Assembly (NCBI GenBank): GCA_037308085.1
Contig: CP147779.1
Location: 1,184,001-1,248,000 of the forward strand
DNA from: Promethearchaeati archaeon SRVP18_Atabeyarchaeia-1
Lineage (GTDB): Archaea > Asgardarchaeota > Atabeyarchaeia > Atabeyarchaeales > Atabeyarchaeaceae
Length of the DNA stretch: 64,000 nt
Direction: 5' to 3'
Translations under genes and position numbers: made by a program
The notes under the pieces: model-generated
Databases searched by the model: none
Seen by the model: the letters and a program-made list of their open reading frames with translations, nothing else
Told to the model about the DNA's origin: nothing
Part shown: positions 47,299 through 59,466 of the stretch, in pieces
Position numbering within the stretch: position 1 is the stretch's first letter
How the letters are laid out: each line of letters starts with the position of its first letter

Positions 47299-47556
47299 CT
47301 ATTTCTTACTCGGCTTCACCGCAGTCTTCTTCGCAGGCTCCTTGTTGGCTTTCTCCTTCTTTTCTGCCCCCTTCTTTGCGGATTTGCGGCAAGCTCCCGT
47401 TGGACACACGTCGACACAGGCCCAGATATCCGTGCATTTCTCGGGATGTGCCAGAACTGATTTCTCTTCACTATCCATTTCGAGAGCGTTGTTGGGGCAG
47501 GCCTGCACACAAGCTTGGCAGCCAATGCAGGTCTCCCTGTCAATTTCTGGTGGGAT
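47299..47556 (-). CDS. Ferredoxin with Lys-rich tail; ATC at the start position
   Basis: PPEIDRETCIGCQACVQACP...CTDIWACVDVCPTG; GGTGA SD 6 nt before ATC; in-frame TGA just upstream. Confidence 0.85.
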   Translation of the reverse strand: MPPEIDRETCIGCQACVQACPNNALEMDSEEKSVLAHPEKCTDIWACVDVCPTGACRKSAKKGAEKKEKANKEPAKKTAVKPSKK

Positions 47557-47693
47557 ACGACATCACCTTCCAATCCATCTGTGTGATGATACCTCCATCA
47601 TCGATCATCTAATAAGACTTTCCTTGTTACGGGAATGAGAGTGGAAGAGTCTGCACTCCTCTCTTGCACACATCTGATGCGAGTCGCAGGAGG

Positions 47694-49085
47694 TCACCGA
47701 TTAACTCGCTGATCCCTCTTCTTCACATGATCCCTGATGAGTCTCTCAAATTCGTCTTTCGGCACAACTAAGCATCTACGGATTCCCTGGCGTACCATGG
47801 TGGCCTTGAGTTTTCCGCGCTGGCACCAACTGTTCAATGTTCTGCGTGAGATGTGCGCCATCCTCGAAACATCTATGAGCTTCACGCCTTCGCTCTCAAT
47901 TCTCCTAGTCTCTTCTCTCTGTTGCTCTGCCTTCCGCAATACTCTCTCAAGTCTTGCAATTTCGCTTTGCTGAACCACAAGATACTTTAGACTTCCTTCA
48001 CGCACAAAAGCGGTCTCAAGTTTTCCTTGCTGATGCCATCGCAACAGTGACGGATATGAAATGCCTAACATTCCAGCTAGATTCATGAGTCTTACTCCAT
48101 GTCTTCTGATCCTCTTTGTCTTATCTTCCTCTATGAGAGCTTCCTGTTCGACTCTTTTGGCTTCATCCACCGGGATATAGTACCAAGATAGCGACGATTT
48201 GCCCAGGGCCAGTTTCTTCCTGAGATGTCTTATCCTTCCAGATTTGATCCATCTCTCCACGGTGAGATAACTAACGTTTAGCATGCGGGCAACTTGGCCG
48301 GTCGTCAAATAGCCTCTTCTCTCGCTTCTACACTCATCTACTCTCTTCAACCAATCAACAGCCTTGTACGAGAACTCAGCGATTCCTGCATCAAGCAACG
48401 CTATTATTCCAAGTTTCCGAATATAAAGAACAGTAGGTCCATTGCTGCGGACACGTACACGTGTGCTCGCTGGAGCAAGGCACTCAACAAAGCCCTTTGC
48501 ATAACCAATGAGAAACAGATATCTGCTTTGGGTGATGCTCCATTTCCATTGACCGATTGCGCCAAAGCACGGTTTTTTCTCGCCTTTCTCGACACACACT
48601 TGGCAATTTCCGTCTCCATCAATAAGCCCTGCAATAAAAGGGATACCACACTCGACACTCGCCAACTTGTTCTCTTCAAGAAATCTATTCACTGCATCTG
48701 GGCTGTCTCTGAGAGCACTCTTCCTTGGAAGAAACTGAAATAGTGCTTTTGAGTAGGTTAACACAATCCACATGTCTTTCCGCTTGTCCTTGTGAATTTG
48801 CGGGTTTGAAGCGATTCGTCTCAGCAGTCCGGCTATCCTTCGAGCCAGCTCTAACTCATCTATGTTCAAACAGAAGCCAACGCGATACGAGTGGGACTTC
48901 CTCCTCATCGTTTTCTTGCCCAGATGGGAGTATCCGTCTGCAATGTATAACCCAAGCAAATAGGCCAACTCTTTCTTGGAAAGGGCAGTAATGTTTAGGC
49001 AGCGCGTTGGACACATATGTATTCTCACTCGTTTGCCCCGGTAGTAACCTGTGCCATAGAAAAATACGCTGATCATATGATACAA
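47694..49085 (-). CDS. Double-motif LAGLIDADG endonuclease fused to three MerR/excisionase-type HTH domains (start may be 49016)
   Basis: LAYLLGLYIADG and FIAGLIDGDG; YLTTGQVARMLNVS..TV.RW...G plus two similar units. Confidence 0.88.
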   Translation of the reverse strand: MYHMISVFFYGTGYYRGKRVRIHMCPTRCLNITALSKKELAYLLGLYIADGYSHLGKKTMRRKSHSYRVGFCLNIDELELARRIAGLLRRIASNPQIHKDKRKDMWIVLTYSKALFQFLPRKSALRDSPDAVNRFLEENKLASVECGIPFIAGLIDGDGNCQVCVEKGEKKPCFGAIGQWKWSITQSRYLFLIGYAKGFVECLAPASTRVRVRSNGPTVLYIRKLGIIALLDAGIAEFSYKAVDWLKRVDECRSERRGYLTTGQVARMLNVSYLTVERWIKSGRIRHLRKKLALGKSSLSWYYIPVDEAKRVEQEALIEEDKTKRIRRHGVRLMNLAGMLGISYPSLLRWHQQGKLETAFVREGSLKYLVVQQSEIARLERVLRKAEQQREETRRIESEGVKLIDVSRMAHISRRTLNSWCQRGKLKATMVRQGIRRCLVVPKDEFERLIRDHVKKRDQRVNR

Positions 49086-49151
49086 AGACCATGAGAACTA
49101 TGGCAACACATGAAAGAGCATAGTGCCGATAGCCCGATGGGTGAATCCAGG

Positions 49152-49286
49152 GTGAGTAGTCAATCTAAGACGACGATAGAGTTATCGATGGAAACTAGGA
49201 ATCGACTGAAGGCACTAGGCAGAAAGGGTGAAACATACGATCAAATTATAAAGAAGCTTCTGAGGCTGACCAAACAAGCCACATGA
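49152..49286 (+). CDS. Small RHH/antitoxin-like DNA-binding protein, 44 aa (not in the ORF track)
   Basis: MSSQSKTTIELSMETRNRLKALGRKGETYDQIIKKLL matches the archaeal TTI...T..RL...G..GETYD.II..L pattern. Confidence 0.8.
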   Translation: MSSQSKTTIELSMETRNRLKALGRKGETYDQIIKKLLRLTKQAT

Positions 49287-49482
49287 AGATGGCCCTACAA
49301 AACAGGGTCTTCTTGACAGTGCACAAAATGCTGAAGACCTAATTCGTCAAAATAAATAATCGAGACCTCAGAGCATAAAGGAGACGGATAGACGCAAGCA
49401 ACCAGAAGACTAATCGAAACCTCAAAAAGAAAGGCTCTTTGACATGTAGCTAAACCAGGATAGTGTTAACTTCTCTTTCAGC

Positions 49483-49515
49483 TATGCATGTTTCCCCGTC
49501 GATTTCTGGCGGCAT
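49483..49515 (-). pseudogene. Displaced ferredoxin 5' fragment (MPPEIDGETCI)
   Basis: ATG with GGTGA SD (49526-49522) and TTATAA box (49567-49562); 9 of 10 residues after the start match 47553-47524. Confidence 0.85.
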
Positions 49516-49681
49516 GTAGAATCACCTTTTGCTTCCAAATCTCTGATATCAGTCGCTCTTATTATAAGATTTTCTTCTTTTTTTTGGATGCCTCCAATTC
49601 AGCCTCAAGACAAGCGGGATGGTTTGCACAGGTTTAAAAAGAGACGCCGGGAAGGTGAAGTGATGAACGAGGTCCGTAATT

Positions 49682-50665
49682 ATGTCTGATATCTTCATCT
49701 TGCTTTCGCTCTTATCTGCAATTCTAGTCGGGTTCTCAGTTGCCATGGAGAGAAAGGGCCTCTCACAGCTGCCTGAAATAACACCTGGAAAAATCGCGAG
49801 GAATCCAATAAGAGTGGTTTTAAGCTTGATTCTCTGCAAGCTTTGGATCGTCGGTTGGATCATCGCACAAGTAGGCTGGGCTCTTTGGGTTCAAGCGATT
49901 AATATAGGCGACTTCAACGTGGCGAAAACACTGAGCAGTCTCAGCATAGTTGTTGCCACCCTGCTATGTGTTCGTCTATTGGGCGAGAGACTTAACCACA
50001 TAGAAAAAGCAGGCATCATTCTGGTTACTTTGGGAACGCTATCCGTATCGTTGGAGTCTCAAGTAACGAAACCAGGATTCGTAGACTACAATGCGTTCAT
50101 AGCTTTCAATGGAATCGCTTTGGGGTTCGCCTTTTCCCTCATGATAGCAAGCGGCATTAGGAAGAAGGAGCAGGGAAGACCAATCTGGGAAGTCTCGTCT
50201 GCTACCGCAGCGGGGATTTTCTACTCAGTATCCGCGCTCTTTCAGAACCTTGCCAGTTACACGACTCCGAGTGGTCAGGCAGGGTTTAACCTGTTCTCAA
50301 TTCAGAGTTGGCTGGCGTTTCTACTGAATGCTCCATTTATCGTTGGCTATCTGATCATATTGTTGGGATTCTTTTCAATTCAATCAGCCATGAGTCGCGG
50401 AAGAGCTTCTATCGCATACCCCATCTCAACATCACTTGGCATAGCTATACCAGTCTTGGGCTCAGCGCTAATATTCGGCGAGATGCTAGTTGTGCCCATC
50501 GATGGAACCGTCCAGTTCCCGTTATCATATCTGCGTCTTATCGGCACCATTCTGGCAATAGTAGGTGGCGCTCTGATCCAAACTCACTCTTGGAGGATGT
50601 TCGGTAGAAGAAAAGGCGTAGGAACTGCGGTCACCAAGAAAAGCGGGGAGAAACAACCTTCATAA
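49682..50665 (+). CDS. DMT/EamA-like membrane transporter
   Basis: About 10 hydrophobic segments in two repeats; LLGERL, FGE. Confidence 0.75.
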   Translation: MSDIFILLSLLSAILVGFSVAMERKGLSQLPEITPGKIARNPIRVVLSLILCKLWIVGWIIAQVGWALWVQAINIGDFNVAKTLSSLSIVVATLLCVRLLGERLNHIEKAGIILVTLGTLSVSLESQVTKPGFVDYNAFIAFNGIALGFAFSLMIASGIRKKEQGRPIWEVSSATAAGIFYSVSALFQNLASYTTPSGQAGFNLFSIQSWLAFLLNAPFIVGYLIILLGFFSIQSAMSRGRASIAYPISTSLGIAIPVLGSALIFGEMLVVPIDGTVQFPLSYLRLIGTILAIVGGALIQTHSWRMFGRRKGVGTAVTKKSGEKQPS

Positions 50666-51039
50666 TGAAAAGAAAAACTGGCAGCCGTTGTTTAGGGGTT
50701 TTGTTCCCCTTCTTCAACCCAGTCAAGCCTCTCCTCGCGCGGCAAGTTGGAAACGTTTCCTGCTCATCAACGTTTCTAGATATCGTATCGCAGATAGGCG
50801 GTCTGATGCCTTCATCGATCGCTCTCCTGCGCAGCTTCCTGATCATCACTGGTGTATCTGTTTTCCCCAGACACTTGTCAATTCAGCCTCCAATAAGTGT
50901 GATATTGGTTTCTCCACTGTTATGTTGATTGTCTGCGCAGAAATGTGAGAGAATGCTTATATCCCAACGAAAGTCAATTACGCGAAAAGAGTAACTGTCC
51001 TCATTCCATTCTGCTTGAATGATAGGGTGGGATCACAAG

Positions 51040-57774: not shown

Positions 57775-57849
57775 TCAACCTCCACCAACCACCACATTCT
57801 TCACTCTAACACTGGTGCTCCCATTTCCCAGGGGCAGACTACCCTATTC
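57775..57849 (-). pseudogene. Displaced tldD 3' fragment (E*GSLPLGNGSTSVRVKNVVVGGG*)
   Basis: 14 of 24 codons give the same residue as the last 24 codons of tldD (59466-59395); stop lies 6 nt before the pmbA ATG. Confidence 0.85.
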
Positions 57850-59466
57850 ACGACTCGTCATTCATTTCTCATCAATGTTTAGCCAAGACTAGACTATATG
57901 TTTATCGCGATAGTTTCAGAGTGCGTGGAAAGTTGACTTAAATGGTTCTGAGCCTGAAGTCACTGGTTTTCTGCAGTATGTGAGACTGCACATGCATCAC
58001 GAGACCCTCATGGATTCCGTCTGATCTTGGTCTACTTACGGCACCCCAATGGCAAGCGGGAAGCTTAGCGAGGAATACGGCATAGACAAGAGAACTCTTC
58101 GCCGCGGGCTAGTAAAACTGATTGGCGAGAGAGAATACAAAGGGATCATGGATCGAAATGTGAAACAGAGGAAGAAACAGGTTCCGCTAGAGTGGGCACT
58201 CAGAAGACTAAGGAACGCGGAGTTGTTAACTAAACTCAGTAACGAATATGGAGTAAGCAGGAAGACTCTGCGATCCGCCTTCCGGTTGCTGATCGGTGAA
58301 GGAGAATACAGCGCGATAATAGACAGAAAGGCTAGGAAGCAGGTTCCAATCAAAAAGGTGTTAAGGCGATTCAAGAGCGGAGAGACATTGAAGAGTCTTT
58401 GTATGGAATATCATGTCACGTGGGAAACCCTGAGGAACATTCTCACGAAGGCAATTGGTGAAGAAGAGTACCGGAAATTAGTTCCAATGCACAGGGGAGG
58501 AAGAGCGCGGAGACAACTTCCAGTTCAGGAAGTTTTGACGAGAGTCAAAGCCGGTCAGTCACTAGGAAGACTTGCCAAAGCTTACAATGTAAGCTGGCTG
58601 ACTTTGAAGCGTAGGCTGGTAGAACTAGTTGGCAAAGACGGATATAAGTCGGCTAGAAAACGAACAACGCGAATCCGAGTGAAACCTCGAAGGGCCACAG
58701 TGGGATACGGCTCTCCTCTTGCAAAGGAAAATGGGGCTGACAGCCTTATTGAACTCAAGGTCAGAATGCTCCTACAGAATAACAGGGTTTCCTTCGGATA
58801 TCGGGAAAGCCTAGTTGTCAGGGGACACTGCTATGAACCAGACTTCATGTTCGGTGATAGGACCATCGTTGAGGTCATGGGAGTCACGAATACTGAGTAT
58901 TGGACGCGGTGCCACAAGAAACTGTAAGATTACGTCGGAAGTGCCTATAGAGTCATTGCAGTGATACCAGACTACTTAATCGACATAAGAAGCAAGTATA
59001 TTCCAAAAGGAGTCAGCATGATCAGGTACAACGACTTCACGAATAACATCGAAAGATACATAAAACAATTAGTGAACAAAACTAATATCGACAACTCAGC
59101 CATTCACTGATGAACTGCCACTCACGCGTGGTGATTTCAAGCATCATCGACAGTATTGCTGCAGGGGCTGGAAAAGATCCCATATTCTTCTTCCGTTAGA
59201 TCTCGACCCAGCTTGTCAAACCCTTTCCGACGTCGGATTTTGATTGGGGGAATCATACTGATGGGAGATTAGTCGGAGTTCCAGATGGGGCCCATAATAT
59301 ACCCCCTTGCCGAAGTAGAGCCTTGGTACTACCCTGCCTGTTTCAAGGAAATCGGTTGGAGGTTTCTCGCATGTTTCCAGTCTGGCGACCACTACTGCCC
59401 GCCGACAACAACATTTCGGATTCTTGTGCTACTCCCTCCATTACCCACGGGCAAATTGCTCTGTTC
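57850..59466. mobile_element. Endonuclease cassette at the tldD 3' end, carrying a replacement C-terminus (boundaries approximate)
   Basis: Splits the tldD-pmbA operon; tldD 3' end present on both sides. Confidence 0.7.
58049..59110 (+). pseudogene. Tandem-HTH-repeat + PD-(D/E)xK (Vsr/DUF559-like) endonuclease with an in-frame TAA
   Basis: Four ~54-aa repeats (L..EYGVS..TL...L..LIGE.EY), then S.IE...YEPDF...IVEV.G...YW; TAA at 58925-58927, frame stays open 60 more codons to TGA at 59110. Confidence 0.78.

Follow-up and report, generated by a model that had tools for sequence, protein, structure and literature searches.

How can a conserved ferredoxin gene be read when ATC stands at the place of its start codon, and why does a second version of its promoter, Shine-Dalgarno (SD) sequence and first codons lie about 2 kb upstream, on the far side of a LAGLIDADG endonuclease gene? 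This arrangement is found in a window of 64,000 nucleotides (nt) from Promethearchaeati archaeon SRVP18_Atabeyarchaeia-1 (GenBank assembly GCA_037308085.1, contig CP147779.1, positions 1,184,001 to 1,248,000), and all positions given without a contig name are those of the window. The genome, a single contig of 2.81 Mb, is called G000 below and is compared mainly with the isolate LC30 (G001) and with Atabeyarchaeum deiterrae-2 (G002). Herein we propose that the locus is likely a homing-type mobile cassette of the gene-end-replacement kind, acting on the 5′ end of its target in the chromosome of an Asgard archaeon. The mobile unit probably comprises left non-coding DNA, a gene for a DUF7557 protein of the ribbon-helix-helix (RHH) type, a gene for a LAGLIDADG protein with three helix-turn-helix (HTH) domains, and a carried ferredoxin head (promoter box, leader, SD, start and first 12 codons).

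Two heads of one ferredoxin gene

The stranded 5′ end (hereafter the relic) and the whole gene are laid out as follows.

49482..49574, minus strand: relic of the native ferredoxin 5′ end (box, SD, ATG and 11 codons), assigned by pattern matches; box and first codons as in the cassette-free allele of contig L094
49574-49562, minus strand: promoter-like box of the relic, GAAAATCTTATAA
49528-49521, minus strand: SD of the relic, AAGGTGAT
49515-49513, minus strand: ATG of the relic, opening the frame MPPEIDGETCI
47299..47556, minus strand: whole 2x[4Fe-4S] ferredoxin gene, 85 codons plus stop (47301-47299); Pfam Fer4 families, all eight cysteines kept
47622-47610, minus strand: promoter-like box of the whole gene, GAAAGTCTTATTA
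47569-47562, minus strand: SD of the whole gene, AAGGTGAT, with a spacer of 6 nt as in the relic
47556-47554, minus strand: ATC at the start position of the whole gene, followed by PPEIDRETCIGC
47521..47630, minus strand: carried replacement 5′ end, with box GGAAAGTCTTATTA (47623-47610), leader, SD, ATC and codons 2-12

An earlier reading made from the sequence alone (the sequence-only reading) had placed two ferredoxin heads here, and their coordinates hold on re-reading: the relic lies upstream of the whole gene at a distance of 1.96 kb, both on the minus strand. The ferredoxin likeness of the relic ends at 49482, after ...TGC ATA G, and what is left of its frame continues to the stop at 49452-49450. 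The earlier count of nine identical residues out of 10, five of them through synonymous codons, was correct, and the match that it saw between the upstream boxes is reflected in a shared pattern, GAAA[AG]TCTTAT[AT]A, that occurs three times genome-wide, two of them at this locus. The peptide pattern PPEID.ETCI has exactly two occurrences in the six-frame translation of the genome, both of them here; since the peptide is unique to these two places and the box pattern is rare, the resemblance of the heads is not due to chance. BLASTN of the genome did not recover the pair, which means that the likeness lies at the codon level, and it found no repeats of the insert elsewhere in the genome. The sequence of the locus, ATC included, is reproduced without differences by contigs of four public DNA runs from two studies, two of which runs may be the source of the assembly; no contig of the four runs joins across the insert, and gaps in coverage in two of these runs are without significance.

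Cassette-free alleles in related genomes

The sequence-only reading called for an alignment with related genomes in which the upstream neighbour, a DMT-type transporter gene, lies directly beside the ferredoxin gene, and stated that its idea of an insertion would fall if no empty allele existed. A ferredoxin search of public sequences, followed by contig look-ups, located six metagenome contigs (L094, L095, L096, L097, L098 and L100) in which the DMT gene directly adjoins the ferredoxin gene, all of them without a nuclease homologue. With G002, where the Fd-Fd2-ATPase synteny is kept, the ferredoxin starts with ATG and the cassette is missing, this makes seven empty alleles. LC30, a member of the same genus as G000, has the same cassette layout at the same junction and again an ATC, and contig L099, from a close relative of LC30, has a native ATG head.

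The stranded head is native and the attached head foreign

The comparison of LC30 with L099 separates the two heads most clearly. From codon 13 on, their ferredoxin genes share about 95% DNA identity. Within the head, 8 of 36 coding bases (22%) of LC30's attached version disagree with L099, and its leader is unrelated, whereas LC30's relic departs from L099's native head (leader plus first 31 coding bases) at about 4-5 of about 50 nt. The divergent block of LC30 stops at codon 12, the point at which the relic ends. The relic of G000 shares the box AAGAAAATCTTATAAT and the stretch ATGCCGCCAGA identically with L094, a closely related empty allele. A five-way alignment places the relics with G002 (ATG, GAAAAT, ACA) and the two attached heads with one another (ATC, GAAAGT, AGG, GAG, ACC); the latter are identical to each other at 33 of 34 positions and nearly identical to no native allele. 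Because of these comparisons the relic is taken as the displaced native head and the attached head as imported with the cassette, and the G000 ferredoxin thus appears to be a chimera whose head is carried and whose body, beginning at about codon 13, is native. The earlier proposal that the insert had displaced the native 5′ end and supplied a replacement is in this way upheld by the LC30/L099 breakpoint, the L094-like relic and the empty alleles.

The same comparisons bear on two other explanations for a doubled gene head. If the ferredoxin head had been duplicated in tandem at its own locus and the nuclease gene had landed between the copies later, neither head would be foreign and the nuclease would have had no part in the event. 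The two copies are indeed homologous and in direct order, and the relic and attached head of G000 are equally far from G002 (26/34 each); however, it is the attached head of LC30 and not its relic (~8-10% off) that is the further from the relative's native head, where duplication leads one to expect the reverse or equality. The likeness of the attached heads across two species, unmatched in any native allele, and the return of the same layout with the same nuclease family at eight other genes also speak against duplication in place, which we regard as quite improbable. The fragment at 49515 could instead be the remnant of a separate, deleted ferredoxin paralogue unrelated to the insert, an objection that the sequence-only reading had raised against itself. 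The genome is rich in 4Fe-4S genes, one of them just 0.5 kb off, but the nearest paralogue is only 37% identical, the peptide pattern is unique to the two heads, and the box, SD and codons of the fragment match native orthologue heads in L094 and L099, at the native position beside the DMT gene. The empty alleles refute this explanation, to which we give hardly any credence.

The cassette between the heads

The DNA between the two heads, and the gene next to it, hold the following features.

49287..49481, minus strand: left non-coding part of the cassette, beginning at the insertion junction; absent from all empty alleles, partly conserved with LC30
49110..49286, plus strand: DUF7557 (RHH-like) gene; Pfam PF24434, E 3.8e-9
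47694..49016, minus strand: free-standing LAGLIDADG endonuclease gene, 440 amino acids (aa); Pfam LAGLIDADG_3 (E 2.4e-8) and HTH_17
47631..47693, minus strand: spacer from the nuclease stop to the carried head; poorly conserved, 32 of 60 positions identical to LC30
49682..50665, plus strand: DMT/NIPA-type transporter gene, the native upstream neighbour, outside the element; Pfam EamA and Mg_trans_NIPA

An insert of ~2 kb had thus been recognized rightly, although its extent needs correction, since it takes in the cassette together with the carried head (about 49481-47521) and not the LAGLIDADG gene alone. The RHH and nuclease genes stand head to head with 93 nt between their starts (49017-49109). 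The nuclease has two LAGLIDADG motifs (..YLLGLYIADG.. and ..FIAGLIDGDG..) followed by three HTH_17 domains of the excisionase/MerR type. Both motifs keep their acidic residues, and D27, D133 and D135 are invariant in 38 relatives. A profile of the nuclease family matches the I-DmoI/I-CreI chimera in the PDB (E 9e-7). The AlphaFold2 model of the nuclease has a pLDDT (predicted local distance difference test) of 92.6, and in a Foldseek search with it all 50 matches listed were LAGLIDADG proteins (homing endonucleases, engineered variants and the bI3 maturase); the best among the matches listed were I-AniI and I-DmoI, the latter with a target template-modelling (TM) score of 0.68-0.74. With its motifs and its predicted pseudo-dimeric alpha-beta-beta-alpha-beta-beta-alpha fold, the protein would be a monomeric, two-motif LAGLIDADG homing endonuclease. 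Compared with LC30, the ratio of nonsynonymous to synonymous differences per site (pN/pS) is 0.24 for the nuclease gene, which is intact and under purifying selection, and 0.40 for the RHH gene, whose identity to LC30 is 67%. The RHH gene was not found beside the other nuclease paralogues.

The nuclease is a separate open reading frame (ORF) with its own start and stop and has no Hint or intein match in Pfam, which does not fit an intein. Archaeal LAGLIDADG genes classically lie within introns. Were the 1.96 kb an intron (tRNA-type bulge-helix-bulge or group I) with a homing endonuclease, the ATG exon would be spliced onto the gene body, and this would account for the ATC of an attached head that has no canonical start. 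Against this, no bulge-helix-bulge motif was detected (0 hits) in a scan that set the relic junction against the gene head, and Rfam had no match at E<=1 over this locus or over the five cassette loci that were searched. The relic decays, its SD being lost in LC30 and the frames after the junction having 12 vs 21 codons, relics elsewhere carry stops and frameshifts, and the attached head retains its own box and a perfectly spaced SD. The caveat about splicing in the sequence-only reading consequently finds no support in a bulge-helix-bulge motif or an Rfam intron at the locus, and an intron is very improbable.

The cassette is younger than the split of its hosts

The proportion of synonymous sites that differ (pS) between G000 and LC30 is 0.74-0.80 for the ATPase, 0.75 for Fd2, 0.74 for the DMT gene and 0.75 for the ferredoxin gene (Fd), as against 0.467 (bootstrap interval 0.41-0.53) for the nuclease gene and 0.41 for the RHH gene. 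In other words, synonymous sites are saturated in the host genes around the site and unsaturated in the cassette genes. By this measure the cassette is younger than the split between G000 and LC30, as expected for horizontal spread. Taken together, the lower pS of the cassette and the native head in LC30's near relative point to separate entry of the cassette into the same site in two lineages after their split, as homing predicts.

The same arrangement recurs at other genes

The G000 nuclease has six paralogues in its genome, and a search of public sequences at E<=1e-30 gave about 97 cluster representatives of the family. For family members, the two flanking regions were translated in six frames and compared with each other, with shuffled controls. 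Members of the family lie between two versions of a gene end at eight further targets, which makes nine host genes in all.

Peptidase, G000: C-terminus duplicated
Dodecin-like gene, G000: C-terminus duplicated
GPN-type GTPase, LC30 (L042): N-terminus duplicated
GlcD-like oxidase, G002 (L050): N-terminus duplicated
Unnamed gene, metagenome contig L063: C-terminus duplicated
Long helicase-like gene, metagenome contig L064: N-terminus duplicated
LUD/Fe-S gene, metagenome contigs L065 and L066: C-terminus duplicated
Unnamed gene, metagenome contig L078: N-terminal region duplicated

Both relatives lack a cassette at the peptidase and dodecin sites, and G000 lacks one at the GTPase site of LC30 and the GlcD site of G002. 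Nine of the ten loci have the order relic, nuclease gene, carried end joined to the gene, the exception being L064. At the GTPase the residues of the orthologue are found in the relic (TTMVHR) and not in the attached head (TTLVSS), while the dodecin site shows only a slight native/foreign lean (71-72% vs 65-67% over 93 nt). The relics at other loci bear stops and frameshifts.

A conserved non-coding stretch of ~180 nt is common to cassettes of different genomes and targets (L042:3440-3905 and L050:3453-3945). It follows the relic directly and lies immediately 5′ of the nuclease ORF; it has no Rfam match and could be a cassette promoter, operator or RNA.

Some neighbouring genes also deserve mention. 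In G002 (L037:8800-8950) there is no DMT gene between the LUD gene and the ferredoxin gene, unlike in G000 (window 49682-50665), LC30 and the six metagenome contigs; it was probably lost. A LUD/Fe-S (lactate-utilisation type) gene is reduced to its last ~66 codons at 50704-50900 on the minus strand of the window. Whole CCG and LUD genes stand between the DAO and DMT genes in L097, and the LUD gene stands whole in G002 and L094 as well. Elsewhere in G000 the remnant has no match better than one of 36% identity (C1:2484480-2485601), and the C-terminus of the LUD/Fe-S gene is a target of a paralogous nuclease cassette in L065 and L066. About 8 kb off, at 57775-59466 of the window, the C-terminus of tldD is present in two versions (orphan ..SLPLGNGSTSVRVKNVVVGGG, current ..NLPVGNGGSSTRIRNVVVGGQ) around a putative cassette of a different nuclease type.

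How the cassette would move, and what weighs on this reading

In the mechanism that we propose, the nuclease would cut a cassette-free ferredoxin gene around codon 12, within the sequence for the first CxxCxxC motif, and the break would be repaired from a cassette-bearing copy. During repair the recipient's gene body downstream of the cut would pair with the donor's gene body, and its promoter-to-codon-11 piece with the donor's relic. The product would be the relic, the cassette and a carried head joined to the native body, so that the gene stays whole. Because the 5′ end is replaced, such a cassette has to bring its own promoter, SD and start codon. Its carried head is not the same in sequence as the native site, which would presumably make it uncuttable; close to the junction, within about 11 bp, the head departs from native alleles at several bases, which is no more than suggestive of resistance to cutting.

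Several observations weigh against the homing reading. The sharp breakpoint between native and foreign sequence comes from one pair, LC30/L099, and the L099 contig starts 18 nt upstream of its ATG, which leaves the upstream neighbour outside it. The nearest empty allele to G000 (L094) has a gene body of 79% nt identity, too distant for a sharp breakpoint, and no donor of the carried head was identified. At the peptidase site the decayed relic is no closer to the orthologues than the attached end. L064 (3310-5488) has the opposite polarity, with an intact, divergently oriented gene of >1100 aa 5′ of the nuclease gene and a 58-aa N-terminal relic on its 3′ side. No duplication of the flanks was detected at three of the six G000 paralogues (C1:911k, 109k and 1150k), nor at several LC30 loci, one G002 locus and several metagenome loci; their relics may have decayed, or may lie elsewhere in their targets. 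Finally, the carried head is conserved far beyond the synonymous sites of the nuclease, which simple co-transfer does not explain: G000 and LC30 agree at 109 of the 120 positions (91%) of the block 47630-47511, which takes in box, leader, SD, ATC and first codons and is the best conserved stretch of the locus, compared with 53% for the spacer beside it and with nuclease synonymous sites that differ at 47%. Among possible reasons, a weak AUC initiation region may be under constraint, cassette proteins may bind there, or the block may have co-evolved with the specificity of the nuclease.

The second of these reasons leads to a further explanation, itself compatible with a homing origin, in which the cassette is a fixed, domesticated module whose LAGLIDADG-HTH protein, RHH protein or both bind the carried leader and control the ferredoxin gene. 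Purifying selection on both cassette genes in two species, the conservation of the carried block relative to the neighbouring spacer, the three HTH domains and the weak ATC start in both species would all suit a regulator. Yet a pure DNA binder would not need the catalytic acidic residues, which both motifs keep, the cassette is younger than the species split, and close relatives lack it, so that it is not a fixed regulator of the clade. In addition, folding of four versions of the leader gave z-scores of -0.7 to +0.7, and no RNA structure or repeat stands out. We consider domestication unlikely and retain the homing cassette as the preferred reading.

Translation from AUC

An in-frame TGA lies two codons 5′ of the ferredoxin ATC, and no ATG, GTG or TTG start retains the first CxxCxxC motif of the whole ferredoxin; use of the next canonical start, GTG at 47508, costs three cluster cysteines. 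Compared with G001 and G002, the ferredoxin gene has a rate of nonsynonymous change (dN) of 0.10-0.19 with saturated synonymous sites, that is, it is under strong purifying selection. Because of this selection, and because all eight cysteines are kept, the ferredoxin is presumably translated in the genomes that bear the ATC. AUC is the only candidate initiator conserved in both G000 and LC30, and we infer that translation starts from it, 6 nt after a full SD. A +1 frameshift from the out-of-frame ATG within GGTGATG was considered and is unlikely, as this ATG is ancestral, is also present in G002 and is without a spaced SD.

One of the empty alleles with an adjacent DMT gene (L096:560-700, JGI contig Ga0314860_0239894) has ACG at the start position, right after an in-frame TAG, with the SD present and the remainder of the gene intact. 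As only one short contig shows it, the ACG may be a sequencing error; if real, it would join the carried head's ATC as a second near-cognate start at this ferredoxin.

Comparison with known systems

Homing endonuclease genes are thought to require an intron or intein in order to invade essential genes without killing the host. A spare, uncuttable gene end is a third way which, to our knowledge, has so far been seen only in the yeast WHO elements (from which HO descends) and in fungal mitochondrial mobile ORFs (mORFs), and for 3′ ends only. The same gene-end strategy now appears in an Asgard archaeal chromosome, at nine host genes and including a form that swaps promoter and start.

The closest parallel is with the WHO elements at FBA1 of Torulaspora and Lachancea yeasts, where each integration replaces the 3′ end of FBA1, the old end stays behind as a stranded fragment and acts as a homology arm, and the carried, diverged end confers resistance; the target gene is chimeric, presence and absence are polymorphic, and WHO6 was shown to cleave (Coughlan et al. 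2020, eLife, PMC7282813). In both systems a free-standing LAGLIDADG-type nuclease is fused to extra DNA-binding domains, and its gene travels with a diverged copy of the target end while the old end is stranded. The WHO proteins are intein-derived with zinc fingers, whereas the archaeal nuclease is I-DmoI-like with HTH_17 domains; WHO swaps the 3′ end and the ferredoxin cassette the 5′ end, so that it carries promoter, SD and start; and the WHO host is a meiotic diploid, compared with a haploid archaeal chromosome. Cleavage by WHO6 was shown experimentally, while for the archaeal nuclease it is predicted from sequence.

Mitochondrial mORFs of fungi likewise carry a foreign C-terminus and displace the native one, as at atp6 of Allomyces macrogynus and at atp6, atp9, cox2 and nad3 of Glomus (Beaudet et al. 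2013, PMC3630166, citing Paquin et al. 1994). They share with the cassette an endonuclease ORF joined to a foreign gene end, and a displaced native end that is closer to the relative's sequence than the attached one. In contrast, mORFs are organellar, replace C-termini only and often have their ORF fused in frame to the host gene, while the ferredoxin cassette is chromosomal and free-standing, has an RHH gene of its own and replaces an N-terminus with its expression signals. The features of a WHO- or mORF-type element, namely occupied and empty sites, a stranded fragment, a foreign attached and a native stranded end, and a younger age, all seem to be present at the ferredoxin locus.

I-DmoI and the other monomeric, two-motif archaeal LAGLIDADG enzymes have the same fold and both catalytic motifs; I-DmoI differs in being encoded by an rRNA intron and in lacking a C-terminal HTH array, and its identity to the cassette nuclease is about 20%. 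The free-standing seg and mob homing endonucleases of T-even phages practise intronless homing, in which they cut the neighbouring gene in genomes without them and co-convert the flanks. They resemble the cassette in that the nuclease gene lies outside any intron or intein, and differ in that the phage genes are intergenic, strand no gene end and belong to the GIY-YIG and HNH families rather than to a LAGLIDADG-HTH one.

No archaeal report of a homing element that replaces gene ends was found in the literature searched, which included a paper on the mobile elements of these genomes, and a search for 5′-end cases returned irrelevant papers only. A wider view, for which we would put the chances at slightly under even, is that Atabeyarchaeia chromosomes house a radiation of WHO-like elements, among them one that replaces gene heads and brings in promoter, leader, SD and start, and that through a near-invariant AUC head this element owns, and perhaps tunes, the expression of a host redox gene. 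Foreign parts in conserved archaeal genes would give chimeric phylogenies, and gene callers may truncate such genes, as exemplified by a ferredoxin in which no ATG, GTG or TTG keeps the first cluster motif. The family also represents natural LAGLIDADG-HTH nucleases with long sites, whose predicted targets can be read from the relic junctions, and the locus offers a concrete case for near-cognate AUC/ACG initiation by Asgard ribosomes. Should the wider view be true, Atabeyarchaeia would have yielded the first system of this kind to be described outside the nuclear and organellar genomes of eukaryotes, where the yeast WHO elements and the fungal mORFs reside, and also the first that acts on 5′ ends.

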